IMG/VR virus record: IMGVR_UViG_3300020048_000003
Origin: a virus
Reading direction: 5' to 3' (one strand)
DNA length: 64,000 bases
How positions within the stretch are numbered: the first letter of the stretch is position 1; each line of letters begins with the position of its first letter. Positions 3,159-36,161 of this stretch are shown here, one piece after another. Made by a program: the position numbers and the translations under genes. The notes beneath the pieces are model-generated. The model made no database searches, was not told the DNA's origin, and was given only the letters and a program-made list of their open reading frames with translations.

Positions 3159-3171
3159 AAATATATAGTTG

Positions 3172-20082: not shown

Positions 20083-20088
20083 AACAGT

Positions 20089-21115: not shown

Positions 21116-21362
21116 TCTTTTTTAACTTTATTCTTCTACTCTCACTTAACGATACAAAATACTCAGACTCATAACCAGCATTATGATTATTATCATTTAT
21201 AATCCATATTCTCAACCTCATACCACTATTATGAATATGTGACTGAAGTACAATATATACCTTACCCTCAGTCAAATCATTAGAACTAACCTTAGATACA
21301 ACACGATTACCAGTACTGAACTCCTTCTTCTTACTATCCGTTACCTTATCATACAGACCCAT
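21102..21362 (-). CDS. famB small protein
   Basis: LTEGKVYIV...SLSESRRIKLKKIVNE. Confidence 0.75.
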   Translation of the reverse strand: MGLYDKVTDSKKKEFSTGNRVVSKVSSNDLTEGKVYIVLQSHIHNSGMRLRIWIINDNNHNAGYESEYFVSLSESRRIKLKKIVNE

Positions 21363-21690: not shown

Positions 21691-21934
21691 TCTCTATCTC
21701 CTTTAACTTTCTCTTACGATACTCCTTTATTGTTATAAACCTTTTTTCACTATACTGCCGAACTTGTTTCACATCATTTTCCATTTCATAAAAATAACAA
21801 CCATCATATTCCATATCAACAATAACATATAACTTGTCCAAAGTTAAAAAACAAGACTTATCAACACCATAAGCACCAAACTTACCATTATTAATACATA
21901 TAACCTTATCACCGATTTTTATATTATCCCTCAT
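21677..21934 (-). CDS. famB small protein
   Basis: IKIGDKVICINN...RFITIKEYRKRKLKEIENG. Confidence 0.85.
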   Translation of the reverse strand: MRDNIKIGDKVICINNGKFGAYGVDKSCFLTLDKLYVIVDMEYDGCYFYEMENDVKQVRQYSEKRFITIKEYRKRKLKEIENGSV

Positions 21935-22208
21935 TTAACCTCCGTAACTTTAACCTCCTTATAAATAATATACTACTTACAATTTCATAATCACTTGTAT
22001 CTATATGAATATAATTATTCGCCTTATACCGAGAAACCTTACCCAAAGCCTCAATAGTATCATTCCTAATCCTTAAAGCACAATTTTCATAATCACTCTC
22101 CCTTAATTCTCCACACCTATCACGCCAATCTATATCCATAGAAAATAATACCAATTGAACATTCCTAAACTCCTTCGCATTACTACAACATATTATAACA
22201 TTATTCAT
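21924..22208 (-). CDS. famB-like small protein
   Basis: C-term LFIRRLKLRRLNEG. Confidence 0.6.
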   Translation of the reverse strand: MNNVIICCSNAKEFRNVQLVLFSMDIDWRDRCGELRESDYENCALRIRNDTIEALGKVSRYKANNYIHIDTSDYEIVSSILFIRRLKLRRLNEG

Positions 22209-22476
22209 ATAACCTCCGTAACTTTAACATTCGCATTAACTTTATATCATCCGTCTCCCAACCTTCACAATTACCTTCCTCCTCACTCTTGAAAACATTA
22301 TACTTCTTACTACATGATGTATAATAATCTGAACCATCATGAAACTTACAAGAATAACACTTCTTATTCATAGGATTAAAACAACACCTTGTCTCATGCA
22401 CAACTACTTTCATACTTGAAATATCAGTATGACTACAAAAATCACATTTCCAAACTCTCTTCATCTGTGTCCACAT
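22201..22476 (-). CDS. Cys-rich (zinc-binding type) famB protein
   Basis: WKCDFCSH...RCCFNP..KKCYSCKF...NCEGW...LMRMLKLRRLYE; paralog of 63581..63877. Confidence 0.7.
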   Translation of the reverse strand: MWTQMKRVWKCDFCSHTDISSMKVVVHETRCCFNPMNKKCYSCKFHDGSDYYTSCSKKYNVFKSEEEGNCEGWETDDIKLMRMLKLRRLYE

Positions 22477-22657
22477 TTAACTTATCCAACTTATACTTCC
22501 TAACATCCTTAATATTATATTCAATACAATCTATCTGTTCATCATTATTAACACTACAAGTACCAGACCAACACATAACATCCTTATCATGTTGTACCCG
22601 ATGTGGACATTCTGTAACATCACACTCCAATCCCCTTGAACATATCATTTTTTCCAT
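22442..22657 (-). CDS. Cys-rich famB small protein
   Basis: CSRGLECDVTECPH...CWSGTC...IKDVRKYKLDKLN. Confidence 0.7.
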   Translation of the reverse strand: MEKMICSRGLECDVTECPHRVQHDKDVMCWSGTCSVNNDEQIDCIEYNIKDVRKYKLDKLNVDTDEESLEM

Positions 22658-22881
22658 TCTCCTTTTAATTTATTTAACTTATACTTCCGTGCCTCCTTCA
22701 AACTCATAAACCTATAAGCATAAAAATAATTGGTAAATATAACACCATTCTTCGCAATATCCACCATCTTACGCTTTTCTCCATCAAAAACACCAACAAC
22801 ATCATATACACCACCTATATCTAAATCATTCTCCTTATAAGTATTATCCTTACAAATTATTTTATCACCTACATTAAACAT
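22645..22881 (-). CDS. famB small protein
   Basis: MFNVGDKIICKDN...FMSLKEARKYKLNKLKG. Confidence 0.85.
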   Translation of the reverse strand: MFNVGDKIICKDNTYKENDLDIGGVYDVVGVFDGEKRKMVDIAKNGVIFTNYFYAYRFMSLKEARKYKLNKLKGEWKK

Positions 22882-22893
22882 AACACATTACTA

Positions 22894-23112
22894 TTAAAGA
22901 CGACTTACAATCTTTTCCAATTTTAACCTCCTATACTCTTTAAGTTCTATGAAAAAACTCCGAGGATATGCAAAATACTCTCCAATATCATTCAACACAA
23001 CTATCCTATCATCCGTATATTTCCACTTATTCCTCCTATTATAATCAATTTCATATACCCTTCCAATAGTTATGAAAATCTGACCCTTACTATTTATACA
23101 TATCACTCTCAT
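22894..23112 (-). CDS. famB small protein
   Basis: MRVICINSKG..ITIGRVYEI...ELKEYRRLKLEKIVSRL. Confidence 0.85.
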   Translation of the reverse strand: MRVICINSKGQIFITIGRVYEIDYNRRNKWKYTDDRIVVLNDIGEYFAYPRSFFIELKEYRRLKLEKIVSRL

Positions 23113-23312
23113 ATTCTTTCTAATTGAAGTTTATCTAATTTCTTCTTACGCTCATCCCTTATACTATATTTAACACACTTTATATTCATATCATGAACAC
23201 CACAAATACCATGTAAACAATCCCTATAAGTTTCTATATGCGGCTTAATATGTGGACACTCCACCTTTTTACAACCTTCAGCCATTGAACATACCATCAC
23301 TATTTCTGTCAT
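23109..23312 (-). CDS. Cys-rich famB small protein
   Basis: CSMAEGCKKVECPH...CLHGICGVH...IRDERKKKLDKLQ. Confidence 0.7.
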   Translation of the reverse strand: MTEIVMVCSMAEGCKKVECPHIKPHIETYRDCLHGICGVHDMNIKCVKYSIRDERKKKLDKLQLERI

Positions 23313-23313
23313 A

Positions 23314-23502
23314 TTATTCTCTCCAACTATCTAAATTTTCTAATTTCTTTTTACGAACCTCCTTTAATGAAATAAACCTCCAAGCATAATAACCATTAAT
23401 GAAAACTCCACCACTATAATCCTCAATTATATAAATCTTATTCTCCTCCAGTACCTTAGTACTACGAGCATCAATACAAATAACCCTATCTCCTATCTTC
23501 AT
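23314..23502 (-). CDS. famB small protein
   Basis: MKIGDRVICIDAR...RFISLKEVRKKKLENL. Confidence 0.85.
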   Translation of the reverse strand: MKIGDRVICIDARSTKVLEENKIYIIEDYSGGVFINGYYAWRFISLKEVRKKKLENLDSWRE

Positions 23503-23753
23503 ATCTCCGGTTCTATTAAAGACGACTTATTAATTTTTTCCAACTTTAACCTCCGATACTCACTCTCAGTAGCAAAATAACAACAATCGTAAGAAAATAT
23601 ATCACCACTATTATTCTCAATCAGATAATGAGTTAATTTCTTATTATTAATATTATGAATTTGAAATCCATCATCATCATAAAATAAAACAGTATACCAC
23701 TTTCCAGGTGTTATCCAAGTATGCTGACCCTTATCTACACATAATATCTTCAT
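23499..23753 (-). CDS. famB small protein
   Basis: MKILCVDKG...ESEYRRLKLEKINKSSLIEPEI. Confidence 0.8.
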   Translation of the reverse strand: MKILCVDKGQHTWITPGKWYTVLFYDDDGFQIHNINNKKLTHYLIENNSGDIFSYDCCYFATESEYRRLKLEKINKSSLIEPEI

Positions 23754-23983
23754 AACTCCGGTTCTATTAAAGACGACCTATTTATTCTTTCCAATTTCTT
23801 ACGACGATACTCCTTTAATGTAACAAAATGCCGATCAGCATAACAAAATCGTGACCCCATATCATTAATAATCCAATACTCCTTGAAAATCCTCTGAGAA
23901 ATACAAGCCACAACCTCATACTTTCTACCAACAGTTATAAAACTCTGCTCACCTCTATTTATACAAACTACCTTCAAATTCAT
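23750..23983 (-). CDS. famB small protein
   Basis: VVCINRGEQSFITVGRKYEV...LKEYRRKKLERINRSSLIEPEL. Confidence 0.85.
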   Translation of the reverse strand: MNLKVVCINRGEQSFITVGRKYEVVACISQRIFKEYWIINDMGSRFCYADRHFVTLKEYRRKKLERINRSSLIEPEL

Positions 23984-24210
23984 AACTCACTCTTATTTCT
24001 TAACTCCAACAACTTTAACCTACGATACTCCTTATTATTGTTAAATAACTTCATAGGATAACTAAAACTAAATCCCATATCATTAAAAACTAAATACTCA
24101 CCATAAGTAGAAGATAACTCACAATCATACAACTTACCAACAGTTAATAAAAAATATCCACAATACTCTCCATTACGAATATTATTCTTCTCAATACATA
24201 TTAACCTCAT
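23980..24210 (-). CDS. famB small protein
   Basis: MRLICIEKN...LTVGKLY...NKEYRRLKLLEL. Confidence 0.85.
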   Translation of the reverse strand: MRLICIEKNNIRNGEYCGYFLLTVGKLYDCELSSTYGEYLVFNDMGFSFSYPMKLFNNNKEYRRLKLLELRNKSEL

Positions 24211-24433
24211 ATTTCATCCTTATCTTGTTTAACTTTTCACTCCTTTCATCCTTTATATCCATAAAACATTCAGCCTCATATGGTCCACAAAAACCATCAT
24301 CATTATTTATTCTGTAATATATACAACCATCATAAGAACGATAAGAATCATGTACAAAATACCGCCTACCAACAGTTATAAAATTATAATCAAAAGCATT
24401 TATACATATTAAATAATCACCAACCTTTTTCAT
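24191..24433 (-). CDS. famB small protein
   Basis: KKVGDYLICINA..ITVGRRY...IKDERSEKLNKI. Confidence 0.8.
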   Translation of the reverse strand: MKKVGDYLICINAFDYNFITVGRRYFVHDSYRSYDGCIYYRINNDDGFCGPYEAECFMDIKDERSEKLNKIRMKYEVNMY

Positions 24434-24678
24434 AACTCCATAATTATTTTTAACTTCTTCTTCCTTATATCCCGAACCTTCTCAAACCTCCAACTATAAT
24501 AACCATTAATGTAAAATTCTCCATCATAATCACCAAGATAACTTAACTTCTCTATAATATATACACGACCCAGCTTTAACTCCATAACATTAGCAGCAGG
24601 ATGCTTGTCATTAATACATACAACCCTATCACCTAATTTGAAATTATTAATACTTGATACCCTATTCTCCATTATCAT
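24430..24678 (-). CDS. famB small protein
   Basis: FKLGDRVVCIND...KVRDIRKKKLKII. Confidence 0.85.
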   Translation of the reverse strand: MIMENRVSSINNFKLGDRVVCINDKHPAANVMELKLGRVYIIEKLSYLGDYDGEFYINGYYSWRFEKVRDIRKKKLKIIMEL

Positions 24679-24914
24679 ACCGTTTCTATTAGAGACGACC
24701 TACTTATTCTTTCCAATTTCTTACGACGATACTCCCGAACATCCTCAAACCGCCAAGTAAAATAACCATTGATATATGTATCACCATCAGGCGAATAACT
24801 ATAATCCTCAACCTCCTTTATAATATAAATTTTACCAATAGTTAAATAGTTCTCAACCATCGCATTATCTATACATACTACCCTATCACCTACTTTACAA
24901 TCTAATATATTCAT
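24675..24914 (-). CDS. famB small protein
   Basis: CKVGDRVVCIDN..LTIGKIY...DVREYRRKKLERISRSSLIETV. Confidence 0.85.
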   Translation of the reverse strand: MNILDCKVGDRVVCIDNAMVENYLTIGKIYIIKEVEDYSYSPDGDTYINGYFTWRFEDVREYRRKKLERISRSSLIETV

Positions 24915-24923
24915 ATATTCATA

Positions 24924-25181
24924 CTACCACCTATTATTAATCTTTTCCAATTTACGCTTACGATAATCCCTCAAACTTATAAACCTATTCTCATAATAAC
25001 CATTTACATAATATTCATCTGACCGAGCAGTCCTACCATACTCAACCACATAAACTTGATTAAGAACTAAACAATCCTCTACTCCAAAATTATCTATACA
25101 TACAACCCTCTCACCCTCATTATACTTACAAGAGTTCTTATTCTTAGAACTCACTGCCGAATCACTCAAATACCTACCCAT
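24924..25181 (-). CDS. famB small protein
   Basis: EGERVVCIDN...RFISLRDYRKRKLEKINNRW. Confidence 0.85.
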   Translation of the reverse strand: MGRYLSDSAVSSKNKNSCKYNEGERVVCIDNFGVEDCLVLNQVYVVEYGRTARSDEYYVNGYYENRFISLRDYRKRKLEKINNRW

Positions 25182-25416
25182 TAAAGACGACCTCCCCCAA
25201 TTTCCTTAATTTCAAACAACGACTCTTCTTCTCCTCCATCACATATGGCTCCGTATACCAACTCTTATTACCATAATCATCTACTATTAAAAACCTCACA
25301 CTTCCCCACTCATCTACCCTCTGTGTATTAGGCAAAATATTTAACACCTCATAACTCTTTCCAATAGTTAATCCCATATAATCACCAAAATATGTCTTTA
25401 CAAATATTACCCTCAT
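25174..25416 (-). CDS. famB small protein
   Basis: MRVIFVKTY..LTIGKSYEV...KKSRCLKLRKLGE. Confidence 0.75.
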   Translation of the reverse strand: MRVIFVKTYFGDYMGLTIGKSYEVLNILPNTQRVDEWGSVRFLIVDDYGNKSWYTEPYVMEEKKSRCLKLRKLGEVVFNG

Positions 25417-25511
25417 TCCCCAAAGATAAAAATAATTACCAATATAAAAAAATATCCACTCAAAATTTAATATAAAATTTTAATATATAAAGAAAAATAA
25501 TCATATCACAC

Positions 25512-25712
25512 ATGAAAAACTTTGAAGAATATCAACAAACAAAAGAACAAACAAACGAATCAGTTACTCCCGGTAACCTTTATAGAGATATGAACCAACA
25601 ATTTACACAACTATTACAAACAGTCTGCGATAAATACCAAATAACAAACGAAGAAGCATCACAAGTTATAGCCGATTACTTTACATCTAAACAATGGAAC
25701 GTTACAGCATAA
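25512..25712 (+). CDS. hypothetical small protein
   Basis: 66-aa ORF after divergent intergenic region; followed by terminator. Confidence 0.45.
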   Translation: MKNFEEYQQTKEQTNESVTPGNLYRDMNQQFTQLLQTVCDKYQITNEEASQVIADYFTSKQWNVTA

Positions 25713-25868
25713 AAACATTAACAAAAAAATACCAAAATGTTCAGAAATACCACCTAAAATTTATTATATCTATCACAAAATTGTGTCAAAAAGTGGAGAA
25801 AAGTGGTAAAAAGTGGCGAAAAATGGAGGTAAAAAGATAACACTATAAGAATAAACACTTTAAGAAAA

Positions 25869-25901
25869 CCTGGATAACCGACGACTATCCAGGTATTTTT
25901 T
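25869..25901 (+). terminator. rho-independent terminator
   Basis: CCTGGATAaccgacgacTATCCAGG + TATTTTTTT. Confidence 0.65.
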
Positions 25902-26047
25902 TAGGATCCTAAAATAAGCCTCTGTATCACTCTCCAATACAGCATCCTATTCTCCTGACCCCGAGATACTTACAAAGTTCTTAATCTTTTGATAATGAAC
26001 AAGTTGCGACTGACAAAAAGTCACATGCCAAAGTATAAAAAAGGAGT

Positions 26048-26066
26048 AATTTAGAATTGTTCTAAA
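26048..26066. promoter_or_regulatory. perfect palindrome AATTTAGAA-TTG-TTCTAAATT (operator-like)
   Basis: 9-bp arms read directly; second copy 26228-26246. Confidence 0.5.
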
Positions 26067-26094
26067 TTGCTCAAATATTCAAACGGAGTTTGAA

Positions 26095-26116
26095 GTTCAG
26101 AACTTTGTTCTGAATA
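26095..26116. promoter_or_regulatory. palindrome AGTTCAGAAC-TTT-GTTCTGAAT (operator-like)
   Basis: 9 of 10 bp arms. Confidence 0.4.
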
Positions 26117-26150
26117 TTTTTTAGTTTGACTTTAAAGTATTATCTTTGTT

Positions 26151-26426
26151 ATGTGGGAGTGTGAGCCGATTTTTCCGGTTAATAAAGGTGAAATTACAAT
26201 TGTAAACTTGATAGGTTTACTAAAGCAATTTAGAATCGTTCTAAATAGTGGATGCCCAATTTTTTTATTCAACTTTTCTCCCTATCTTTGTATTCTAAAA
26301 ATAACAACTATGGGTTTCTTAGCATTCTTTCTTATTGTAATTGGAATAGTAAATGGTAAAACAGGATTAGTTTTGCTTGGATGTTTGGTATATCTATTAA
26401 GTTATAAAACAAAAAAATCAAAATGA
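26151..26426 (+). CDS. small hydrophobic peptide (real start probably internal Met at ~26311: MGFLAFFLIVIGIV...)
   Basis: track ORF; C-terminal 38 aa strongly hydrophobic; N-part overlaps palindromes. Confidence 0.35.
   Translation: MWECEPIFPVNKGEITIVNLIGLLKQFRIVLNSGCPIFLFNFSPYLCILKITTMGFLAFFLIVIGIVNGKTGLVLLGCLVYLLSYKTKKSK
26228..26246. promoter_or_regulatory. second copy of TTTAGAA-N3-TTCTAAA palindrome
   Basis: AATTTAGAA-TCG-TTCTAAAT. Confidence 0.5.
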
Positions 26427-26608
26427 TAGTAGAAGTATGGAATGACGATTATAGTACATCAGCATTCACTCAAGGTGATCCTAATAAAGACATCATCTTG
26501 GGACCAAATCCTGTATTCGTTAGAACTATTGAAGGGGAAGATTGGAACGATTGCATGAAACAACATCACGAACTAATGGGTTGGGAACCTTATATACCTT
26601 TTGAATAA
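26423..26608 (+). CDS. hypothetical small protein
   Basis: 61 aa, acidic; ATGA-type overlap with flanking ORFs. Confidence 0.45.
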   Translation: MIVEVWNDDYSTSAFTQGDPNKDIILGPNPVFVRTIEGEDWNDCMKQHHELMGWEPYIPFE

Positions 26609-26793
26609 TGATCGAACATTTTATAAATTACTTGGGTACATTTGCACTATTACTATTTGGTTGGTGGTTCACACTACTACTAATAGATTATATCTTAATT
26701 GATACCAATAAAGAACATTGGAAAATGAAACTATGGAAATGGATAACATTCATTTATATTATACTAGCAATATACTTCTATATTAGAAAATAA
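26608..26793 (+). CDS. small membrane protein (2 TM)
   Basis: ALLLFGWWFTLLLIDYILI / WITFIYIILAIYFYI. Confidence 0.45.
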   Translation: MIEHFINYLGTFALLLFGWWFTLLLIDYILIDTNKEHWKMKLWKWITFIYIILAIYFYIRK

Positions 26794-26901
26794 TGTGGAC
26801 CCATTTGGGGACACAGAATAGAAGGGAATAGGTTTAATTAAGGATTAAGTAAATTTCACCCGGGTGATCGTTTTAAATTAATATAAAAAACAATAAAAAA
26901 T

Positions 26902-27261
26902 ATGAAAGAATCAAAGAAATATGTAATAGCTTTTTTATTTGCTATGATTACTCTTGTACTCATGAGTGGATTAAATGAATGGACTCGTTGGGGTATAGAT
27001 TTATTAGTTGGGTGGTTTCCGATTACTGCTTGGTTCTCAACTATAAGAGTTATTAATATGAATAATGGTACTAAGTATGAACATACATCTTGGGGAACAG
27101 TAGGTTTTGCATTTGTAATAGCATTACTATTATCTTCTTTATGTTCTATTCTTCTTATGCCATTAGTAGTAAATGGATTCTTAACTGGTTTATTGTATAA
27201 CTTAATGACTAAGCCAGATGTGATAGAGGAAGAAATTGAAAAAAAAGATACAGATTTTTAA
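26902..27261 (+). CDS. membrane protein (3-4 TM)
   Basis: 119 aa hydrophobic. Confidence 0.5.
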   Translation: MKESKKYVIAFLFAMITLVLMSGLNEWTRWGIDLLVGWFPITAWFSTIRVINMNNGTKYEHTSWGTVGFAFVIALLLSSLCSILLMPLVVNGFLTGLLYNLMTKPDVIEEEIEKKDTDF

Positions 27262-27897
27262 AACTTTTGGTTTAAAATAACATATACTAATACACAAGTT
27301 AAGTTTTTAAGTTTAACAACAACATAAAGTAATTGCCGCAAGCTTTTGCTTAGTTGATAAAGACTTTAACTGAGGATTTGAATCCAGTTCATCCTGTTCT
27401 ACGGAACTTAAAGTTAATTGGCAGTCGGTTTACAAAGACTTATAAAACAGTTAATCGCGCCCTACTAAAATTTTGGGGCAGTTAGCACCTCCTAAATAGG
27501 TGACAGATGTTAAACATATGTTTACATACCGTTTAACACTCCGTTTTTCTTAGAAACTGTTACGTGAAATTTTCTAAGGTCTTTTCCCTTCAACTTGCAA
27601 GGGTAGTCTAAGTGGACGACGTGAGTCACGCTGAACTAACACAGGTTAAAGTTAGTGTTTATAGAGTTAAACTCTATAGTTTGGGAACCTTATATCCCTA
27701 CACTTGTTTACAATATTAGAATATTGTTAAGTTCTTGTAAACAATGTATCTGGCTCAAAGCCAGGTCAGTAACTACATTAATACAACAGTAATGTTCTGT
27801 TTATGTAAAGTGCTGATAGCATAGAAGAATCTACGGGTTCTATTATGTTAATAGAGAAGCCTCATTGAAGATAATTCTTTGAGGCTTCTTTTTTTAT
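27262..27897 (+). ncRNA. candidate structured ncRNA or long 3' UTR (unidentified class)
   Basis: ~600 nt with no ORF >=60 aa on either strand, higher G+C, internal palindromes (CGTGAgTCACG, GGATTtgAATCC), ends in strong terminator. Confidence 0.35.
27855..27897 (+). terminator. rho-independent terminator
   Basis: AGAAGCCTCA...TGAGGCTTCT + TTTTTTTATT. Confidence 0.7.
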
Positions 27898-27994
27898 TAA
27901 AACAATTAGCTTATATTTGAACAGTAGTTCAAACTTTCAAACTTTGTTTGAATATTTGTATAGATAATTAATAACAATATAATACAATAACATT

Positions 27995-28357
27995 ATGATA
28001 ATACTCTATATTCTTTTAGCGTTAGGCTTCATTACAATAGGTATACTTGCCTACCAATCTGATAAGCATCTCAAATGGTTCAACTCTCTACAGCCCGGTG
28101 ACCAGGTGTTGGTACGTATATACTCTAAGTACTGTGAGTGTGCTAGGGTAGCCACGGTAACGGTAGCAAGTGATGGTAAGTACATACAATGTACAATGAG
28201 TGAACAAGTGTCTAAGGATTGTAAAGACTGTGCAGCTATTAATGGTAGGGACAGTAAGGGTAACAATACTTGTTGGCACCATGTGACATACTATAAGCGT
28301 AAGGATATATCTAAGGTCACTGATAAGGCTAAGATATATACCACATTGGGTAAATAG
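27995..28357 (+). CDS. membrane-anchored Cys-rich protein (atypical G+C-richer codon usage)
   Basis: N-terminal TM then CEC...C..C..C...C; AAG/GTG-rich codons unlike neighbours. Confidence 0.5.
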   Translation: MIILYILLALGFITIGILAYQSDKHLKWFNSLQPGDQVLVRIYSKYCECARVATVTVASDGKYIQCTMSEQVSKDCKDCAAINGRDSKGNNTCWHHVTYYKRKDISKVTDKAKIYTTLGK

Positions 28358-28415
28358 TCTACACACTCTACACTATTCTACACTACCTTAATAGGAGGTG
28401 GTGTGATAGGTATGC

Positions 28416-28718
28416 TTAGCCGATTGAGTCTATGCGTACTATTATATTATTATATAGGGTAACAACAATACGATATTGATCGTATTCGTAAGGCTTAAGC
28501 TGTAGTTCGTTATCTTTATTGCCCACGAATATATAATAATGTCGTGGTAATATTGTGCGTCCTTGTTCAAGTAATTCGTCTGTACCGTTATCAAACAATA
28601 TAATATCGTTGGGGTTCATGCCGACTATATGACTAAAATCTTCTGGTGTCTTATTACTTGTCTGTACGTTACCGTATATCCCTTTCACCACCCTGGGTGG
28701 TATGTATATATTACCCAT
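28416..28718 (-). CDS. hypothetical protein (atypical codon usage)
   Basis: 100-aa ORF in G+C-richer island. Confidence 0.45.
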   Translation of the reverse strand: MGNIYIPPRVVKGIYGNVQTSNKTPEDFSHIVGMNPNDIILFDNGTDELLEQGRTILPRHYYIFVGNKDNELQLKPYEYDQYRIVVTLYNNIIVRIDSIG

Positions 28719-28916
28719 AGAATATCTCTCTTTTTTAACTATATATTATTAGGTGGAGGCTCTCTACAATTTTTCTGAATTTTAATAGGATTTTTTTTCT
28801 ACACAAGGTGACTAGGCTTAGTGCCTTGAGGCAACAAACTTTTCTACACTAGGCAAGGCGCTCGCCCTCCCCAATTTAGGAGGTAGACAACAATAACATA
28901 TTGTTATCATCTACCT

Positions 28917-28941
28917 ATGTCCATGTGTGTCACATGGACAT
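28917..28941. repeat. perfect inverted repeat ATGTCCATGTG-tgt-CACATGGACAT
   Basis: 11-bp arms, 3-nt spacer; followed by direct repeats ATGTAGAT x2. Confidence 0.6.
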
Positions 28942-29140
28942 ATGTAACATACTTGGATATGACTCCAAGGAGCATACGTATGTAGATATGTAGATATGTG
29001 TATATGGGGTCCATACAAAAATTGGCGCATATTTGAATGTTTTTCTCCCAGCACATTTTTAAAATAAAAGAAATTTTTATATGCCCTTTCCCCTATATAT
29101 AGCGTGGCCCCATATGTGGGTATAAACACTTCCCAATATT

Positions 29141-29290
29141 GATTTTGAAAATTTTTTTTTTGGGGAAAAATTTAGCAAAAATTCGCCAGGATTGATTTTC
29201 AAAAATTTTTTTTGGGGAAAATTTTTTATATAGATTTTCAAAAATTTTTTTGGGGAAAATTTTTGGATTTTTTTGGGAAAATTTTTTTAT
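29141..29290. repeat. ~4 tandem imperfect copies of ~35-nt unit GATTTTCAAAAATTTTTTTTGGGGAAAATTTTT (iteron-like)
   Basis: read directly; abuts tRNA-like element. Confidence 0.6.
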
Positions 29291-29296
29291 TCTTAT

Positions 29297-29388
29297 ATTG
29301 TGGTGTGGGATTCGAACCCACGCGCCAGTGATTAACTGACCTGTTTGTTTTCAAGACAAATCTCTTACAACCGCTTGAGTAATCTTCC
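29297..29388 (-). tRNA. tRNA-Ser(UGA)-like: D-arm, anticodon arm (CU-UGA-AA), long variable arm and T-arm (GGTTCGAATCC) intact, 3' acceptor strand does not pair (possible pseudo-tRNA or junction)
   Basis: revcomp GGAAGATTACTCAAGCGGTTGTAAGAGATTTGTCTTGAAAACAAACAGGTCAGTTAATCACTGGCGCGTGGGTTCGAATCCCAC then ACCACAAT instead of ATCTTCC-N-CCA. Confidence 0.5.
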
Positions 29389-29536
29389 GTTATTTTTCCC
29401 TTAGTATTTTTTCTTTCCAATACTTTCTTCTTCTGGTTGAATTTTTCGTTTTAGATTTGAATGTACTTGTCTGTGAATCACAATTAGGACATATCAATCT
29501 AAGATTAATCCTTTTGTTATTCGATGCGTCACCTTA

Positions 29537-30295
29537 TTATAATTGTGATGTATTAATAGGTAGATTAAATGAAAAAGTACTACCCTTCTTTATTTTACTA
29601 CTAATTTGTAGTGTTCCGCCATTTAATTTTATGAAACTTTTACACAACTTCAATCCCAATCCGCTTCCCTTTTCTGCATTTGTTCCAAACGTTGTATAAA
29701 ATTCGTTATCAGATAAAATTCTATCAATATTATCTTGACTAATACCAATTCCATTATCCGATATTTCAATTTTTATAAACTCATTGTCAGTTGTCATGTT
29801 AATACTAATCTTACCGTTTTTATTTGTAAATTTTATGGCATTAGATAATAAATTTCTAACTACAGATTCTATCATTATTTTATCAGCGTATGCTGTGAAT
29901 ACTCCAGAATAGTTTTTTTCTACTGTAATATTTTTCTCAATAAATCTATAATCTAAAATCATAAATTTTTTATCAATTATTTCGTTTAGATTAATTATGA
30001 CAGGATTATATGAAAGTGCATTTTTATTATGTGTTGCCCACTGTAATAGATTTTCTAACAACTCAAATGTACGTTTAGACAAGTCTTTTATAAAACCCAA
30101 GTATTGATATAATTCAGATTCAGTTACATCATCCTTTTCTGCAATTAATTCAGATATTTGCATTATACTACCTATCGGACCTCGTAAGTCATGCCCAATA
30201 ATGGCTAAAATAGTATCCTTTGTCTCATTTAATACACGAAACTGTTCAAGAGATTCTTCTAAATCGTTACATCGGCAACCCGATTTTCTTTCCAT
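29537..30295 (-). CDS. histidine kinase core (HisKA + HATPase_c), no sensor/TM domain
   Basis: H-box IIGHDLRGPIGSI; N-box LLSNAIKFT; G1 DNGIGIS; G2 GSGLGLKLCKSFI. Confidence 0.8.
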   Translation of the reverse strand: MERKSGCRCNDLEESLEQFRVLNETKDTILAIIGHDLRGPIGSIMQISELIAEKDDVTESELYQYLGFIKDLSKRTFELLENLLQWATHNKNALSYNPVIINLNEIIDKKFMILDYRFIEKNITVEKNYSGVFTAYADKIMIESVVRNLLSNAIKFTNKNGKISINMTTDNEFIKIEISDNGIGISQDNIDRILSDNEFYTTFGTNAEKGSGLGLKLCKSFIKLNGGTLQISSKIKKGSTFSFNLPINTSQL

Positions 30296-30379
30296 TTTTA
30301 TGATTTGTTTTTTATAAATAGATTCTTTTTAATTTAATCTATCACTTCTGATTCCATTTCCTCGTTATCGACACCGTTA

Positions 30380-30586
30380 TCAGTATCTTCTATTTTGGTT
30401 ATTGTAACTGGGTATTTGGTTATTGTAACTGGATAAACTTGCCCAACAACATTTAGGGTCTTGCCTGGTAGCAACTCGCGCGCTAACCAGAGCAATTATT
30501 GTAATTTGGTATTCTTGGAATCCAATTTGTAGGATAAGTGCTGATACAACGAGGATCATTTTCAATATTTCAAGGAATGGTTTCAT
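30380..30586 (-). CDS. small membrane protein with QIPSYNN repeat
   Basis: start ATGA-coupled to famB gene 30583..30915; contains 15-bp direct repeat GGTTATTGTAACTGG x2. Confidence 0.4.
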   Translation of the reverse strand: MKPFLEILKMILVVSALILQIGFQEYQITIIALVSARVATRQDPKCCWASLSSYNNQIPSYNNQNRRY

Positions 30587-30915
30587 GTTTTTAATTTTTT
30601 AAGTTTTAATTTTCTAATTTCTTGTTGTGTATAGAAGTATTGGTTATAGTCGTAGAATGTGTAGTTATTGGGTATTTGTGGTATTAATATGGAGAGCCAT
30701 ATATGGTCGTAATTATTAGGGTGGTTAGTTTCAATTTGGTATGATATTATTTTCACTCCTGTTTTTTCTCCGTTGGGTAGTGAAAATTCGTCTTTATATA
30801 CTCCAATGATGTTATACCATTTATTTTTTGTAAATAGTTCTAGTGATTTATCTTCTTTTCGTATCACAAATAATTCGTCTTTAATGGAGAATGATTTTTT
30901 ACAAAGTATTTTCAT
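30583..30915 (-). CDS. famB protein
   Basis: MKILCKKS...YFYTQQEIRKLKLKKLKT. Confidence 0.8.
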   Translation of the reverse strand: MKILCKKSFSIKDELFVIRKEDKSLELFTKNKWYNIIGVYKDEFSLPNGEKTGVKIISYQIETNHPNNYDHIWLSILIPQIPNNYTFYDYNQYFYTQQEIRKLKLKKLKT

Positions 30916-31150
30916 TTAGTTCGTTAAGTTTTTGTAATTTTTCTTTTCTTCTTGATATTGGGTGTAGGTTAGTATTCATTTCAAGTAGTTCTTTATCAAT
31001 ATAGGGTGATATTATTTTTAGTGAGTTGAGTATTCCTTTTACTTTATAGAATTGGTATTTATCGCTATCAATTATTATATCTATTATTTTGACTTTATAG
31101 AAATTGCCTGATACGACTATATCTCCTATTTTATATTTGAATGTTTTCAT
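30899..31150 (-). CDS. famB small protein
   Basis: KYKIGDIVVSGN...ISRRKEKLQKLNELNENTL. Confidence 0.8.
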   Translation of the reverse strand: MKTFKYKIGDIVVSGNFYKVKIIDIIIDSDKYQFYKVKGILNSLKIISPYIDKELLEMNTNLHPISRRKEKLQKLNELNENTL

Positions 31151-31451
31151 TTAGTTTTTGTATTTTTTGTTTTCTCAGGTAATTTTTTGCGTTTATAAAT
31201 TCAAATTTTTCTTTATTAGTTTGGATATAAAAATCATAACTATCTTCTACTAAGATTTCATTTCCTATTTCATCGTCATTTCTATAATTTTTAATTATTA
31301 GTGGATATTTCCTGGAGGAGAAGCGAATTTCTTGTCCACAGCTTTTCCATTTATATCCAAGTTTGAATAATTCTTTTTGTATTTCGCACCATTCTGTATC
31401 GTTATTACAAATGATGCTAAATTTAAAATATTTAATTCTGCTTATTATCAT
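31131..31451 (-). CDS. famB protein
   Basis: C-term NYLRKQKIQKLNENIQI. Confidence 0.75.
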   Translation of the reverse strand: MIISRIKYFKFSIICNNDTEWCEIQKELFKLGYKWKSCGQEIRFSSRKYPLIIKNYRNDDEIGNEILVEDSYDFYIQTNKEKFEFINAKNYLRKQKIQKLNENIQI

Positions 31452-31600
31452 TTAGTTTTTGTAATTTTTCTTTTCGTTGTAATTTTTTAAGTTGGATTTC
31501 GTCTTCAATAGTAAAGTTATATATTTCTTTAATCCAAATTGGTTTAAGTTCTGGTATATTTTTAAGTATTTGGTATACTTGTTTTACTTTTGTATTCATT
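31431..31600 (-). CDS. short famB member (~55 aa, below track cutoff)
   Basis: manual: MNTKVKQVYQILKN...LKKLQRKEKLQKLNDNKQN*. Confidence 0.5.
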
Positions 31601-31867
31601 TTTTATTAATTTTTTCAATTTTTGTTTTCTCAGGTGTTTATTAAATACTGGGTCTTTTTTGATTTCGTCAATTTCGCCCCAGTAGAGTCGTTTTTCGTTA
31701 CCTTGTTCAAATCCTATTATTATATAGAGGGGGTATTCTTGTTCTTGGAATAGTAGCATTTGTTCTTCAATTGGTCTATTGTAGAATCCCCAGTTATATC
31801 CTTTTTGAAGGTATTTGAGTTGTATTTTATAACAATTTTTTTGATTTTTGCAGAGTATAAATTTCAT
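31562..31867 (-). CDS. famB protein
   Basis: C-term NKHLRKQKLKKLIKNEY. Confidence 0.75.
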   Translation of the reverse strand: MKFILCKNQKNCYKIQLKYLQKGYNWGFYNRPIEEQMLLFQEQEYPLYIIIGFEQGNEKRLYWGEIDEIKKDPVFNKHLRKQKLKKLIKNEYKSKTSIPNT

Positions 31868-32148
31868 ATTTCGTCTTTAATAGTATTGAGTTTTTTCAGT
31901 TTGAGTTGTCTAAGTTCTTGTTGTGTATAGAAGTAGTCTTCAAAGAGTGGTAGGTATTTATCACCATATCTTGATAGTCTTGATGTATATAGGTAGTGAG
32001 ATTTATAGAAAAATCTAGTATGTGACATTATGTTATTGTATATTATTAATATTTCGCAACTATCTTTATTTTTATCGTCTTGAGCGGTATAAGTTTGATT
32101 TTCTTTATAGTTGTAATATGTTTTTTTACAAGTTGTTTGGAATATCAT
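31864..32148 (-). CDS. famB small protein
   Basis: DYFYTQQELRQLKLKKLNTIKDEI. Confidence 0.8.
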   Translation of the reverse strand: MIFQTTCKKTYYNYKENQTYTAQDDKNKDSCEILIIYNNIMSHTRFFYKSHYLYTSRLSRYGDKYLPLFEDYFYTQQELRQLKLKKLNTIKDEI

Positions 32149-32461
32149 TTATATTTGAATTAAGGTGTTGTAATTTTTTATATCTATTAAATATTTTTTC
32201 TTTTAGTTGTTTACCGTTTATGTGGTAGCCGAGGTTTTCGCCTGGTTTATCGTATCTAACGTTTTGGAATATTATGGAGGGTCCGAATTCGTTATGGAAG
32301 AGGTTATAACGGTGGTAGAATATACCAACGTTTTGAATTATAATTTTGCTATATTCGTGTTTTGAGAAGAATTCTTCAAGGTCAAATGGGTTTATCTCTT
32401 GTGCTGTAAGTTGAACTACTTGGTATAGTAGGTTATTTTCTTCTATTGTATATGTGTACAT
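32126..32461 (-). CDS. famB-like protein
   Basis: C-term NRYKKLQHLNSNINDIPNNL (variant tail). Confidence 0.6.
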   Translation of the reverse strand: MYTYTIEENNLLYQVVQLTAQEINPFDLEEFFSKHEYSKIIIQNVGIFYHRYNLFHNEFGPSIIFQNVRYDKPGENLGYHINGKQLKEKIFNRYKKLQHLNSNINDIPNNL

Positions 32462-32473
32462 TGTTGGTATGAT

Positions 32474-32857
32474 TTAAATTTCGTCTTTAATGGATAGGCG
32501 GTCTTTAATATGTTGGAGTTTTTCTTTTCTAATTATTTTGATATCTATAATTTTTTGTATATCAATATTATATTGATCTTTTACTTTTTTTATTTTTCTA
32601 ATATCGTCTGGTGTTAATTTTTTTTGTATTAGTGAGTATATTTCTTTTTTTGATAGATCTCTATAATTGTAATATGCTAGTCCGGCGCTATACCAATCGT
32701 ATTTTGCTAAGCCACCGTTATGTGAAATATCTTCAAGTGATATAATGCAATAATCGTTTCTAATATTTGTAAAGATGATACATTTTGCGAATGTTTTATC
32801 TTTATACATTCTGGCACATAGTTTAGGATTACCTATTGTTGGTTTAACAAAGTTCAT
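32474..32857 (-). CDS. famB subfamily MNF(V/I)KP protein
   Basis: MNFVKPTIGNPKLCARMY...IIRKEKLQHIKDRLSIKDEI; close paralog of 32854..33258. Confidence 0.8.
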   Translation of the reverse strand: MNFVKPTIGNPKLCARMYKDKTFAKCIIFTNIRNDYCIISLEDISHNGGLAKYDWYSAGLAYYNYRDLSKKEIYSLIQKKLTPDDIRKIKKVKDQYNIDIQKIIDIKIIRKEKLQHIKDRLSIKDEI

Positions 32858-33258
32858 AAAATTTCGTCTTTAATAGATAGGTTTTTAATTTTTTGTAATT
32901 TTTCTTTTCTTAATTTTTTAATATCTATAAGTTTTTTTAAGTCAATGCAGAAGTCGTTTTTAATTCTTCGTATTTGTTCGGTATCTTTTTGGGATAATTT
33001 TTCGGTTAAATATGGTAATGAATAGATTTCAAGGTTATTTAAGTTTCTATATTTATATGAATTTAGACCTGCGTTATACCATTCATATTTTGATAGACCA
33101 CCGTTATGATTAATATCTTCAAGTGCTATTATGAGGTAATTTTTTTCTGATGTTTTATTGTCGGAGGATTTGAACATGATACATCTTGCGAATCTATTAT
33201 CTTCGTATACTCTGGCACATAATTTTGTTTCACCGATTTTAGGTTTAATAAAGTTCAT
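32854..33258 (-). CDS. famB subfamily MNF(V/I)KP protein
   Basis: MNFIKPKIGETKLCARVY...KLRKEKLQKIKNLSIKDEIL. Confidence 0.8.
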   Translation of the reverse strand: MNFIKPKIGETKLCARVYEDNRFARCIMFKSSDNKTSEKNYLIIALEDINHNGGLSKYEWYNAGLNSYKYRNLNNLEIYSLPYLTEKLSQKDTEQIRRIKNDFCIDLKKLIDIKKLRKEKLQKIKNLSIKDEIL

Positions 33259-33263
33259 ATAAT

Positions 33264-33518
33264 TTAAATTTCGTCTTTAATTGATAGGTCTTTAATATGT
33301 TGTAATTTTTGTTTTCTAAGTTCTTGTATGGTGTAGAAGAAGTAGTTTATTTCAAGTTCGGTAAAAGAGTAATTGTAGTACCAATCATTTCTATCGTCTT
33401 TAATTGGTATTATCCAGTCGTAGGGATTTATGTTTGATTTATTGGTATATTTAAAAGCCAGGTAATATTCGTTTTCAACAATATACTGGTTTATTCTTTT
33501 TTTACAAAGTAGTTTCAT
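33264..33518 (-). CDS. famB small protein
   Basis: FFYTIQELRKQKLQHIKDLSIKDEI. Confidence 0.8.
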   Translation of the reverse strand: MKLLCKKRINQYIVENEYYLAFKYTNKSNINPYDWIIPIKDDRNDWYYNYSFTELEINYFFYTIQELRKQKLQHIKDLSIKDEI

Positions 33519-33912
33519 GTTGTATTTGTTGTAATTTTTTTAATCTAAGGTATTTAGTTCTATTATATACTTCTTTTACAATTATTTCGTTATTTATATA
33601 TTGTGATAGTTTTATTATTTTGATATGTTCATTTTCTTTAACGGTTGATACTACTTCAAGTAATTCAGTTAGATCTTCTTTTTTTTCTAGTGAGCCGCCG
33701 ACTCCACCTGTTGAACTTTTTGCGTGGTAGTAACCGTAGGGGTTAGCGATAAGAGTTTCTTTGAATTCGTTATCTTCTTCACTTCTATAGTAACTATGGT
33801 AGTAGCCACAGTTATAACATATTGTAAATTCTTCACCTGATTTATAATAGTAATCATTATATGCTTCGTGGTGGCAATTAGGGCATTCTATATAATCTAT
33901 TACGCTTCCCAT
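33502..33912 (-). CDS. zinc-ribbon protein with famB-like tail
   Basis: CPNCHH...CYNCGYYH; C-term TKYLRLKKLQQI. Confidence 0.6.
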   Translation of the reverse strand: MGSVIDYIECPNCHHEAYNDYYYKSGEEFTICYNCGYYHSYYRSEEDNEFKETLIANPYGYYHAKSSTGGVGGSLEKKEDLTELLEVVSTVKENEHIKIIKLSQYINNEIIVKEVYNRTKYLRLKKLQQIQHETTL

Positions 33913-34340
33913 TTTTGTAGTTGTTTTAATTTTTCTTTTCTACTATATTCTATAATTAGGTTTTTTACTTTTGCACCGATATTAGGATATTTACAACCGT
34001 TATTCCAGAGATAACCCCAGCAATAATCTTTTGATACTTTATAGATATCATCTAGTGGTGTTTCTTCGTAAATGGTCCATAGGCATTGGTGTGAAAAGGT
34101 GTTTTCTTTATTACTTAGTATCAAACTAAAATGGTGAATTGGTCCAAATTTCAATGTATTTTTATATCCGAACCAAGAATCACATTTTATTCCATTTTTT
34201 CCATTGAATTCTACTATTTTTATGCAATTATGCATATTTTTATTAGGATCGCATTCTAATAATTCAGGTGCGTTAGTATCAATATATTCTTCTAGTCCAT
34301 GTCTAAACGAATCAGAACACAGTAATTTATATAGATTCAT
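33900..34340 (-). CDS. famB-like protein
   Basis: C-term EYSRKEKLKQLQKWEA. Confidence 0.65.
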   Translation of the reverse strand: MNLYKLLCSDSFRHGLEEYIDTNAPELLECDPNKNMHNCIKIVEFNGKNGIKCDSWFGYKNTLKFGPIHHFSLILSNKENTFSHQCLWTIYEETPLDDIYKVSKDYCWGYLWNNGCKYPNIGAKVKNLIIEYSRKEKLKQLQKWEA

Positions 34341-34548
34341 TGAGTTTTTTTAATTTTTCTTTTCTAAATTCTTTTAAGTCTATAAAATTGGTTTTAAGTA
34401 TATGTCCAATTCCGTCAATCCAATAGAATTGGCTATAATTCATTGTATAATCAAAAAAAGTTTCTTCAGCATAATAGATTTTATTTTTAATTAATCTATT
34501 TGTTGTTTTATTTATATAAATAACTTTTTTTTTAACTACTTTTTTCAT
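34327..34548 (-). CDS. famB small protein
   Basis: LKEFRKEKLKKLNESI. Confidence 0.8.
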   Translation of the reverse strand: MKKVVKKKVIYINKTTNRLIKNKIYYAEETFFDYTMNYSQFYWIDGIGHILKTNFIDLKEFRKEKLKKLNESI

Positions 34549-34774
34549 TGAGTTCTTTTAATTTTTCTTTTCTAAGGTATATTCCGTATGGTGTAATAGA
34601 GGTTATTTTAGTAATTTTTTTACAATCAGAGCACCAATGATTATTAATATAGTGTTCTGATTCTTTCATTGCCAGATATACTCCATAATATTTAGAATAA
34701 GGTTTTGAATAGTGTCCACATTCGTATTGATCTATTATTGTGATTACGTCTTTAGGTAGTTTGGACATTTTCAA
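34532..34774 (-). CDS. Cys-containing famB small protein
   Basis: CGHY...CSDC; YLRKEKLKELNEKSS. Confidence 0.75.
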   Translation of the reverse strand: MKMSKLPKDVITIIDQYECGHYSKPYSKYYGVYLAMKESEHYINNHWCSDCKKITKITSITPYGIYLRKEKLKELNEKSS

Positions 34775-35033
34775 GTTCTTTTAATTTTTGTTTTCTTAAT
34801 TCTTTTATTGTTGCGTGTATTTTATTTTGTTCAATGAGTTCTGTGAGGTCCCAGCCATATCGTCCACAGGTCATGGAGTAGTTACCAAATATATTTCTAT
34901 CAATTTTTTTAATTGTGCAGGTATATGGAAAATGTACAAATGCTGGATAGTTTGGATTAAGTCTGCTACTCCATGAGCCGGGGTAGCCAGTTATAATAAC
35001 ATTCATACCTATTTTAAAATCATCTATATTCAT
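34752..35033 (-). CDS. famB small protein
   Basis: FKIGMNVIITGY...IKELRKQKLKELENV. Confidence 0.8.
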   Translation of the reverse strand: MNIDDFKIGMNVIITGYPGSWSSRLNPNYPAFVHFPYTCTIKKIDRNIFGNYSMTCGRYGWDLTELIEQNKIHATIKELRKQKLKELENVQTT

Positions 35034-35302
35034 TTGTTGAGTTGTTTTAATTTTTCTTTTCTAAGGTAAATTTTAAGTCTATCGTCTAAGTATTTTGCTA
35101 ATTTTGCATAGTATGGATGACTTTTAAAGTTGAATGTCATTCCGCTAATTCTTTGTGTCCAATTTGGACCATTTTTGAAGTAGCAGGAGAAGTCATTTAG
35201 TCCAAAACTATGTAGTATTCTTTTTTCTTCTTCTGTTGCGTAGTTAAAGAAGTCAATTTCGTAGAATCCCCAACTATTTTTTTCAAATTGAGCCATAGTC
35301 AT
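35030..35302 (-). CDS. famB small protein
   Basis: C-term KIYLRKEKLKQLNK. Confidence 0.75.
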   Translation of the reverse strand: MTMAQFEKNSWGFYEIDFFNYATEEEKRILHSFGLNDFSCYFKNGPNWTQRISGMTFNFKSHPYYAKLAKYLDDRLKIYLRKEKLKQLNK

Positions 35303-35492
35303 TTTTGGGTTGTTGTATGAGTTTAACTATTGATGATTTTGCTGGGCAGGAGAATACAATATCTTGTATTGATGAATTTTCGGTTACTGCATAGAATATA
35401 ACGGAATTACTTTTATATACTATTGTTTTTGCTTCAATTGTAATTCTTTGTATACCTTGTTTAGTATAGATTGATACTTCGTATTTTTTCAT
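35283..35492 (-). CDS. hypothetical small protein (no famB tail)
   Basis: 69-aa ORF within array, beta-rich sequence. Confidence 0.45.
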   Translation of the reverse strand: MKKYEVSIYTKQGIQRITIEAKTIVYKSNSVIFYAVTENSSIQDIVFSCPAKSSIVKLIQQPKNDYGSI

Positions 35493-35505
35493 AGTTTTAT
35501 GGTTT

Positions 35506-35712
35506 TTATGGTTTAATTTCGTCTTTAATGGATAAGTTATTTATTTTTTGTTTTCTTATTAGTTTAATATTAAATGGTATGCAGGGTTGTATATTTTCGT
35601 GATATTTACAAATACCGCTATCACAATTTATTTCTCTCATATGTGGTTTTTTATGTGGACATATTTTGCTTTTACAATTTAAGTCTGGACAAATGAGGTT
35701 ATTTTCTTTCAT
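35506..35712 (-). CDS. Cys-rich famB small protein
   Basis: CPDLNCKSKICPH...CDSGICKYH...IRKQKINNLSIKDEI. Confidence 0.75.
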   Translation of the reverse strand: MKENNLICPDLNCKSKICPHKKPHMREINCDSGICKYHENIQPCIPFNIKLIRKQKINNLSIKDEIKP

Positions 35713-35887
35713 TTAGTATAGTTATTTTATCTTTTCTAAGTTCTTGTATGGTATAGATTCTACATGGAAGTAATATACCTTTGCAATGTCCGTGATAACA
35801 ATTATAATCTTCTTGGTGTGCTATTTTATGTGTACAACTATAGGTTGTACAATTATTAGATTCTGTACATATCATAGTATTTTTCAT
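35699..35887 (-). CDS. Cys-rich famB small protein
   Basis: CTESNNCTTYSCTH...CYHGHC...IQELRKDKITILNE. Confidence 0.75.
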   Translation of the reverse strand: MKNTMICTESNNCTTYSCTHKIAHQEDYNCYHGHCKGILLPCRIYTIQELRKDKITILNERK

Positions 35888-35903
35888 ATATTTTGATCTA
35901 ATA

Positions 35904-36161
35904 TTATTTTTTTTTAAGTTGTTTTAATTTTATTATTCTTAATTCTTGTTTTGTATAGAAGTAGTCTGTTATAGTATGTGCGAAATGTGGTCCGAACCAT
36001 AAGCCTTTTATTGGTATAGAATCTTGTGAATGTTCGTCAGTTAACACATAGCAATTTCCATCGTTTGGTTCTCTATATCCATTAGTACGGATTTCGTATT
36101 TTTGGTTTATTCGGTATATTCTAAAACCTATAAGATTTTTTTTACAAATTAGGTATTTCAT
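35904..36161 (-). CDS. famB small protein
   Basis: MKYLICKKNLIG...DYFYTKQELRIIKLKQLKKK. Confidence 0.85.
   Translation of the reverse strand: MKYLICKKNLIGFRIYRINQKYEIRTNGYREPNDGNCYVLTDEHSQDSIPIKGLWFGPHFAHTITDYFYTKQELRIIKLKQLKKK

Follow-up and report, generated by a model that had tools for sequence, protein, structure and literature searches.

Partial, non-canonical tRNA gene fragments are known to confuse the annotation of prokaryotic genomes (van der Gulik et al. 2023, PMC9897764). In phages, homing endonucleases located in tRNA regions drive the preferential inheritance of flanking DNA, as with SegB of T4 (PMC2330249), and homing endonucleases sit at the boundaries of exchange between phages, where "HEG islands" have been described (PMC10448857). 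Here, we describe a tRNA-Ser(UGA) gene copy that breaks off before its 3' acceptor strand (the stump), in a 64,000-nt stretch of viral DNA (the window, from IMG/VR record IMGVR_UViG_3300020048_000003). We conclude that the stump is very probably a dead, 3'-truncated copy of a phage tRNA-Ser(UGA), brought in with a 1.1-kb piece of a tRNA island by non-site-specific recombination.

The window has 26% G+C and consists of tightly packed ORFs of 60 to 140 aa (code 11) with almost no database matches; the annotated exceptions are a GIY-YIG homing endonuclease (61467-62342) and a histidine-kinase (HK) core gene directly upstream of the stump on the same strand (Table 1). The exact kinase protein is found on metagenome contigs of 209 to 287 kb, and a neighbouring gene has relatives on IMG/VR contigs, 235 and 501 kb long, that also carry T4-like baseplate genes. 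Given these long contigs and baseplate genes, we take the source to be a huge phage. Two long arrays of overlapping, paralogous ORFs of 60 to 140 aa are present (20000-25416 and 30583-36161, both on the minus strand), nearly all with a basic, leucine-rich tail (...LRKxKLxKL...); in the left array, the coding strand is extremely G-rich (GC skew of about -0.6). The sole match to a GenBank phage within 26500-33500 of the window is an 83-nt segment (26522-26604) with 81% DNA identity to LR756501.1 343735-343817, from the 735-kb uncultured huge phage LR756501/LR756503; it apparently lies in a small ORF in the region 26424-26609 (plus strand; boundaries read by eye).

Table 1. Positions of the stump, the shared patch with its junctions, and the flanking block in the window (the L152 interval is given where it applies)
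Feature	Position	Strand	Basis
Conserved 100-aa ORF anchoring the recipient block	28416..28718	-	109 homologues
Conserved structured non-coding region, including ACACATATCTACATATCTACATACG and several hairpins	28719..29137	-	Fold and homology
Motif array TTTTCCC(C)A7-10T4-5(G)AAAATC, four copies	29138..29290	-	Repeat search, comparison with relatives
Right recombination junction	29301..29304	-	Alignment and junction listing
3'-truncated tRNA-Ser(UGA) gene copy	29304..29388	-	Rfam RF00005, identity to L152 tRNA-Ser
Patch common to window and L152	29304..30416 (L152 3880-5032)	-	blastn and alignment
C-terminal remnant of HNH homing endonuclease (GDASNNKRINLRLICPNCDSQT...)	29390..29533	-	Translation
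Histidine-kinase core gene (HisKA and HATPase_c, 252 aa)	29537..30295	-	Pfam
Left patch junction, 21-nt imperfect tandem duplication TATCCAGTTACAATAACCAAA / TACCCAGTTACAATAACCAAA	30394..30435	-	Alignment

The truncated tRNA gene and the patch shared with a tRNA island

The stump comprises 85 of about 92 nt of a tRNA-Ser gene, the last 7 to 8 bases being gone. Read from 29388 down to 29304, the minus strand is GGAAGAT TA CTC AAGCGGTTGTAA GAG A TTTGT CTTGAAA ACAAA CAGGTCAGTTAATCACTGGCGC GTGGG TTCGAAT CCCAC A, and it continues with CCACAAT. This includes the 5' acceptor strand (GGAAGAT, followed by U8), a D arm with a 3-bp stem and the loop AAGCGGTTGTAA (with GG), an anticodon arm with a 5-bp stem (TTTGT/ACAAA) and a 7-nt loop (CTTGAAA, with U33 and the anticodon UGA), a long variable arm (CAGT-TAATC-ACTG), a T arm (GTGGG-TTCGAAT-CCCAC), and the first base of the 3' acceptor strand. 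The initial annotation had described a tRNA-Ser(UGA)-like fold on the minus strand, and both the reading of the sequence and the Rfam alignment bear out all four arms (D, anticodon, long variable, and T) of a class II tRNA-Ser body.

The canonical 7-bp acceptor stem, in which nucleotides 1 to 7 pair with 66 to 72 and are followed by a discriminator base, is missing. The 3' continuation of the stump, ACCACAAT, is unable to pair with GGAAGAT. The match to RF00005 (29301-29388, minus strand) scores 36.0 bits, against a gathering score of 29, with the 3' strand aligned as a deletion and four acceptor pairs flagged as non-pairs. ARAGORN reports no tRNA anywhere in the 64-kb window and makes no call for the stump at thresholds down to 80%; with alternative tRNA boundaries it returned nothing at 80% and only junk at 60 to 70%. 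The Rfam deletion and the ARAGORN rejection confirm the non-pairing 3' acceptor strand that had been noticed at the outset. When TCTTCCG was inserted in silico, ARAGORN again called a tRNA-Ser(tga), and thus the missing 3' acceptor strand is the sole defect of the stump. RNase P, CCA addition, and seryl-tRNA synthetase require the acceptor/T-arm helix. Because the stump has no 3' acceptor strand, and hence no such helix, it should not be aminoacylated and, judged by its structure, should be non-functional in translation.

An intact version of the same gene occurs on a related 8.7-kb contig, L152, which is a tRNA island with 15 tRNAs. Its gene order is a histidine-kinase gene, a spacer matching that of the window, and an intact tRNA-Ser(tga) at 4948-5040 (55 bits on the Rfam tRNA model versus 36 for the stump). 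The stump is identical to L152 4948-5032 at 85 of 85 positions. After the tRNA body, L152 reads TCTTCC-T-CAATCC, which supplies a proper 3' strand and a discriminator with no encoded CCA, and a tRNA-Leu follows. Another tRNA of this contig, at 2446-2519 (plus strand), was given an undetermined isotype and a 2-base "anticodon" (ca) by ARAGORN and 52.8 bits by Rfam; its anticodon loop may be unusual.

Identity between the two sequences extends well beyond the tRNA. The patch aligns over 1113 nt, in which the differences are 5 mismatches and two indels (43 and 3 nt), and includes the tail of a 130-aa ORF, the kinase gene, an HNH remnant, and the truncated tRNA-Ser. Its flanks are unrelated, as blastn finds no match between the remainder of the 8.7-kb contig and the 64-kb window. 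The last identical bases before the break are ...GGGTTCGAATCCCACA, after which the window reads CCACAATATAAG: identity ends right after ...GAATCCCACA (...CCCACA), at the T-stem/acceptor border, where L152 goes on with ATCTTCC and the window with CCACAAT. Donor-type identity ends at A29304, and the next bases, CCA(CAAT), belong to the recipient block, whose junction sequence is ...CACACCACAAT...; the CACA common to both sides at the join is a possible 4-nt microhomology. The initial annotation had proposed that the 3' end was replaced at a recombination junction or that the gene was a pseudo-tRNA, and the identical 85-nt body followed by ATCTTCC in L152, with identity lost at the T-stem/acceptor border, upholds this. 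At the opposite end, the junction sits inside the truncated 130-aa ORF, in which the tandem duplication is translated as YPVTITK YPVTITK. The 21-nt duplication falls exactly on the left patch boundary and looks like a repair or slippage signature.

The HNH remnant fills the spacer between the kinase gene and the stump, and a single nucleotide separates its stop codon from the first base of the tRNA. A slightly longer version in L152 matches PHROG HNH endonuclease families (E=1.6e-14), and the 43-nt deletion relative to L152 takes away the start of the remnant. Near the patch, L152 also has an intact HNH gene (3021-3413) and a NUMOD3 protein. The kinase of the L152 island is at least 90% identical in amino acid sequence to that of the window, and a member of the 90%-identity kinase cluster, P0233, occurs on ten JGI contigs, L152 among them. 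More distant homologues, at 70 to 75% identity, adjoin topoisomerase genes in T4-like huge-phage contigs, and the kinase relatives L126 to L128 (70 to 77% identity) have no tRNA nearby. The sensor-less kinase core (about 250 aa) is conserved in several huge-phage lineages (L126 5161-5907, L128 2037-2783, L152 4001-4759), beside a topoisomerase gene in some and within a tRNA island in L152; its nearest cellular homologues, where the source is named, are mostly Bacteroidota hybrid kinases at 40 to 50% identity. It may be a phage auxiliary signalling gene.

The resident block beyond the break

The sequence into which the stump runs has its own history of conservation. The initial annotation had reported about four copies of an iteron-like repeat abutting the tRNA, and the repeats are confirmed, with a 23-nt core in four copies and a 35-nt unit in three. 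An 18-mer, AAATTTTCCCCAAAAAAA, has 11 matches with up to 3 mismatches, versus 1.09 expected, and 9 of them lie within 29155-29285; no other place in the window has such an array. The shorter form of the motif, TTTTCCC(C)A7-10T4-5, occurs in 1 to 4 copies upstream of the orthologous 100-aa gene in L132, L133, L139, L140, L142, and L144, always in the orientation of that gene and nowhere else in those six loci. Iteron-type replication origins have several direct repeats of about 17 to 22 bp at regular spacing, next to the gene of an initiator (Rep) that binds them. "Iteron-like" is a possible description of the four copies in the window, which are irregularly spaced (52, 38, and 23 nt) and number 1 to 4 among relatives. 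The adjacent 100-aa gene does not look like an iteron-type Rep initiator, its protein having neither a family match (Pfam or PHROG) nor, in its predicted structure, a DNA-binding-like fold match; the AF2 model (pLDDT 73) gave no PDB fold match below E=0.1, with insignificant CI2-like matches only.

The block as a whole is shared with the relatives. The 100-aa ORF has homologues at 40 to 98% identity, all of about 100 aa, and the orthologues in L132/L133, L139, L140, L142, and L144 have 56 to 72% protein identity. The non-coding region 28719-29140 has an RNA fold z-score of -3.95 on the minus strand, and the structured region is homologous to L139, L140, L142, L133, and L144, with a conserved stretch that reads ...TACACA.ATA.ACA..TCTACATACG.AAGTC. 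Homology of the window to the relatives' block starts at about 29307-29312, coinciding with the tRNA break. Where contigs bridge this region (L140, L142, and L144), a small protein gene lies directly upstream of the block, and there is no tRNA. The block opens with CACACCACGA in L144 and with ACCACAA in L133; in L133 and L139, only about 50 nt of contig sequence precede the motif block, and these weakly resemble a decayed T arm. Because the block is conserved in relatives without the tRNA, the ACCACAAT tail and the repeats are resident features of the recipient locus. The same comparison argues that the motif array is a cis element that belongs to the downstream gene and is conserved across the clade, and that it neither derives from the tRNA nor was created by the truncating event. 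A 7-nt deletion that kept an encoded CCA was also considered for the stump and is ruled out, as L152 has no CCA after its tRNA and ACCACAA / CACACCAC opens the block in L133 and L144 too.

The module extends over 28416-29303 of the window (minus strand), L133 1-940, L139 1-792, L140 5700-7303, L142 100-800, and L144 7340-8297. It could consist of tandem promoters, regulator sites, origin-like iterons, or a structured leader or non-coding RNA. Scans for sigma-70 promoters and terminators around the block gave nothing above shuffled expectation, and a search for the motif TTTTCCCNAAAAAAATTTT across IMG/VR returned 20 loci, about the chance level by a rough estimate, with no homologue of the 100-aa protein in them.

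Several side observations concern the surroundings of this module. Small genes that precede the motif block in L140 and L142 also have the C-terminal ...LRKxKLxKL... motif of the ORF arrays. A GOLLD RNA (RF02032, 290 bits) lies a few kilobases from the orthologous 100-aa gene in L132 (3339-3745) and L133 (3419-3709), on the minus strand in both, and tRNA-Met/Leu genes are found near that gene in L132 (1020-1096, 2397-2482, and 4854-4927). The 501-kb IMG/VR phage contig L144 has two tRNA-like genes with paired acceptor stems and about 27 to 30 nt extra (8363-8462 and 9619-9721, both minus strand; 47 and 26 bits on RF00005), which ARAGORN missed and which may be tRNAs with insertions or introns. 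The corresponding island of the window, 25417-29536, contains three non-coding gaps of 730 to 820 nt with no Rfam match, which may hold diverged or novel RNAs; an Rfam search of 25000-31000 (group I/II intron, GOLLD, ROOL, tmRNA, YrlA) gave no match at E<=10. At its other edge, the island has a 733-nt non-coding gap in which GTGGNGAAAA is repeated five times head to tail with an exact 10-nt period (25783-25832, plus strand); these repeats could be phased A-tracts or a protein-binding array.

Proposed origin of the stump and the competing readings

We propose that the source had the L152-type arrangement, in which a kinase gene, a decayed HNH gene, and a tRNA-Ser(UGA) lie within a phage island dense in tRNA genes. 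From such an island, a 1.1-kb piece would have been copied into a huge phage, where it has an array of small paralogous genes on one side and the regulatory block of the 100-aa gene on the other, with both ends of the piece cutting through genes, the left within the 130-aa ORF and the right after nucleotide 85 of the tRNA. Copying would have proceeded by illegitimate or short-homology repair of a double-strand break, involving either different phage genomes or two sites of a single genome. Ends that cut through genes, together with the possible microhomology, fit illegitimate repair rather than site-specific integration. The homing endonucleases of tRNA islands may have triggered the event: an HNH remnant lies within the tract, 1 nt from the tRNA, an intact HNH gene and a NUMOD3 protein are nearby in L152, and the window has a GIY-YIG endonuclease. 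The kinase gene would then be intact cargo, and the tRNA stump a passenger or by-product. Since the patch is about 99.5% identical including its non-coding spacer, the event is recent. As for the donor, a different phage is conceivable, and so is a second locus in the same genome (at least 209 kb); a comparison of composition did not separate a same-genome donor from a foreign one. The L152-type kinase variant is recorded from JGI samples only and the window type from ENA, Logan, and JGI, a slight hint that the donor was a separate phage.

It is very unlikely that the stump has been retained as a tRNA-like RNA, acting as a decoy for tRNA-targeting defence nucleases or as a processing or stability element of the kinase or 100-aa transcript. 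Its anticodon, variable, and T arms are perfectly intact, it lies on the same strand as and between two genes, and phage tRNA loci take part in counter-defence (PMC13096335). However, the perfect tRNA body says nothing about selection, because the whole patch is near-identical and recency explains the intactness. No diverged truncated homologue was found in IMG/VR, the metagenome collection, or GTDB: in IMG/VR, the tRNA 5' end and the anticodon arm matched only phage tRNA-Ser genes that are intact and have different acceptor stems, and a scan of metagenome contigs returned two unrelated intact tRNA-Ser genes only. Nor is the length of the region conserved, as the gap between the kinase and 100-aa genes in a close strain (JGI 3300059473, a contig of about 4.5 kb) is 656 nt, versus 818 nt in the window, and thus 162 nt shorter. 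We likewise see little chance that the stump is active, as a co-transcript of the kinase gene, by serving as a mimic, closed by AAUUUUCC or lacking an acceptor, that titrates a tRNA-binding factor (SerRS, a modification enzyme, or a host nuclease acting on the anticodon or variable loop) or by punctuating the transcript before it reaches the motif array and the structured leader of the 100-aa gene. If this were true, the huge phage would have, in the stump, a regulatory RNA newly exapted from a tRNA.

Even less likely is a functional, non-canonical tRNA that uses the downstream AAUUUUCC (29276-29283) to close its acceptor stem and in which the 21-nt insert is looped out or removed. The initial annotation had allowed for a fully paired acceptor stem with other boundaries; ARAGORN found none at 80%, and this part of the idea falls, whereas a pairing does appear in the minimum free energy (MFE) fold with a 3' extension, in which GGAAGAUU pairs with AAUUUUCC in the first repeat and a 21-nt insert follows the T stem. 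The MFE fold of 29268-29388 is a cloverleaf with an 8-bp helix (z = -2.0), in silico deletion of the 21 nt yields a tRNA-Ser call by ARAGORN, and complements of the 5' strand (with at most one G-U) occur at 0.00075 per nt in the window, which gives about a 2% chance of one within 30 nt. In this predicted fold, the acceptor helix could persist in a crippled form through the 8-bp complement, 21 nt past the T stem. Against this, the complementary heptamer belongs to a motif conserved in relatives without a tRNA, and the pairing is therefore coincidental in origin. In L152, ATCTTCC follows the T stem directly, which indicates that this is the authentic 3' strand and that AAUUUUCC is part of an unrelated conserved block. 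Furthermore, a 21-nt bulge would break the stacking of the acceptor and T arms, neither ARAGORN nor Rfam accepts the stump as a full tRNA, and we know of no bacterial or phage pathway that removes an insert at position 66.

The initial annotation had also raised the possibility of an att-site remnant, in which an integrase-driven element or phage recombined at a tRNA-Ser and the junction represents attL/attR or an attP core. The break does lie at the T-stem/acceptor border, and tRNA 3' ends and T loops are classical integration targets, as reportedly set out by Williams in 2002. We nevertheless consider this reading highly improbable. The longest ORF in the window has 297 aa, and domain searches of the 14 ORFs that reach 150 aa brought up no integrase or recombinase. 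The displaced 3' tRNA-Ser fragment that was expected to mark the other att end is absent from the 64 kb, which contains no second copy of the T arm (up to 3 mismatches) and no CCCACATCTTCC-like fragment (up to 2 mismatches). Integration normally regenerates an intact tRNA, and none is found here; at its opposite end, the patch stops within an ORF and shows a 21-nt tandem duplication in place of a matching core. The nearest tRNA bodies to the stump are phage tRNAs, and a 22-nt anticodon-arm probe found no tRNA match in 185,579 GTDB representative genomes, although the host may be unsampled. A host-derived tRNA or attP thus finds no support in the GTDB genome scan, which gave a chance match only, and a GGAAGAT at 26536 was rejected as an att partner, as it lies inside the small ORF that matches the 735-kb phage LR756501.

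Finally, an assembly chimera of two phages joined at a short common sequence, which could be imagined because the sequence is metagenome derived and several relatives' metagenome contigs break inside the motif array, is ruled out for practical purposes by the 100% identity of 28700-29540 in three contigs from three sample accessions (the window, ENA ERZ27262924, and Logan SRR7760390), including the outputs of two named assemblers, and the kinase gene adjoins the 100-aa gene in the fourth strain, JGI 3300059473, as well.

Significance and relation to known systems

The stump alone matters little. It exemplifies a mosaic exchange in huge phages resolved to the base, in which a sensor-less histidine kinase would have come out of a tRNA island and left a tRNA stump behind, and which documents recombination at about 99.5% identity between huge-phage lineages or between loci of one genome. 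There is also a caveat for annotation: covariance models call the stump a tRNA (Rfam, above its gathering threshold), whereas the window should encode no functional tRNA. More interesting than the stump is the module of conserved motif array, structured region, and 100-aa gene, which GOLLD/tRNA islands adjoin in relatives.

The locus resembles several described systems in part. Like phage tRNA islands with GOLLD/ROOL (PMC12286853), the relatives L132 and L133 have GOLLD and tRNAs beside the 100-aa gene, and the source locus is a dense tRNA island; unlike those islands, the window has neither a GOLLD/ROOL match in Rfam nor an intact tRNA, and the stump does not lie in a recognisable GOLLD. As in integrase att sites of tRNA genes, with cores in the T loop, anticodon loop, or 3' end, the breakpoint falls in the 3' part of the tRNA, but the window lacks an integrase, a duplicated core, a regenerated tRNA, and, among GTDB representative genomes, a match to a host tRNA. 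Exchange of the SegB and HEG-island type is similar in other ways: a tract of near identity lies amid dissimilar phage DNA, its origin is a tRNA island with HNH and NUMOD genes, and an HNH remnant lies inside it. No active endonuclease or cleavage site was identified at the window junction, and the patch has only a remnant of its HNH gene. One end of the patch was resolved without homology, truncating the tRNA, whereas flanking homology is what classical homing depends on.

Further counterparts are the partial tRNA fragments of prokaryotic genomes (PMC9897764). Like these, the stump is a leftover of rearrangement that keeps most arms intact, passes the thresholds of some detectors, and can be misannotated as a tRNA. 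It differs from them in being an 85-nt 5' piece in a phage genome, with a junction that is not site specific and that reflects mosaic recombination rather than integration. Thus, the stump is a fresh instance of an already known class of partial tRNA fragments, and an ordinary scar of recombination.
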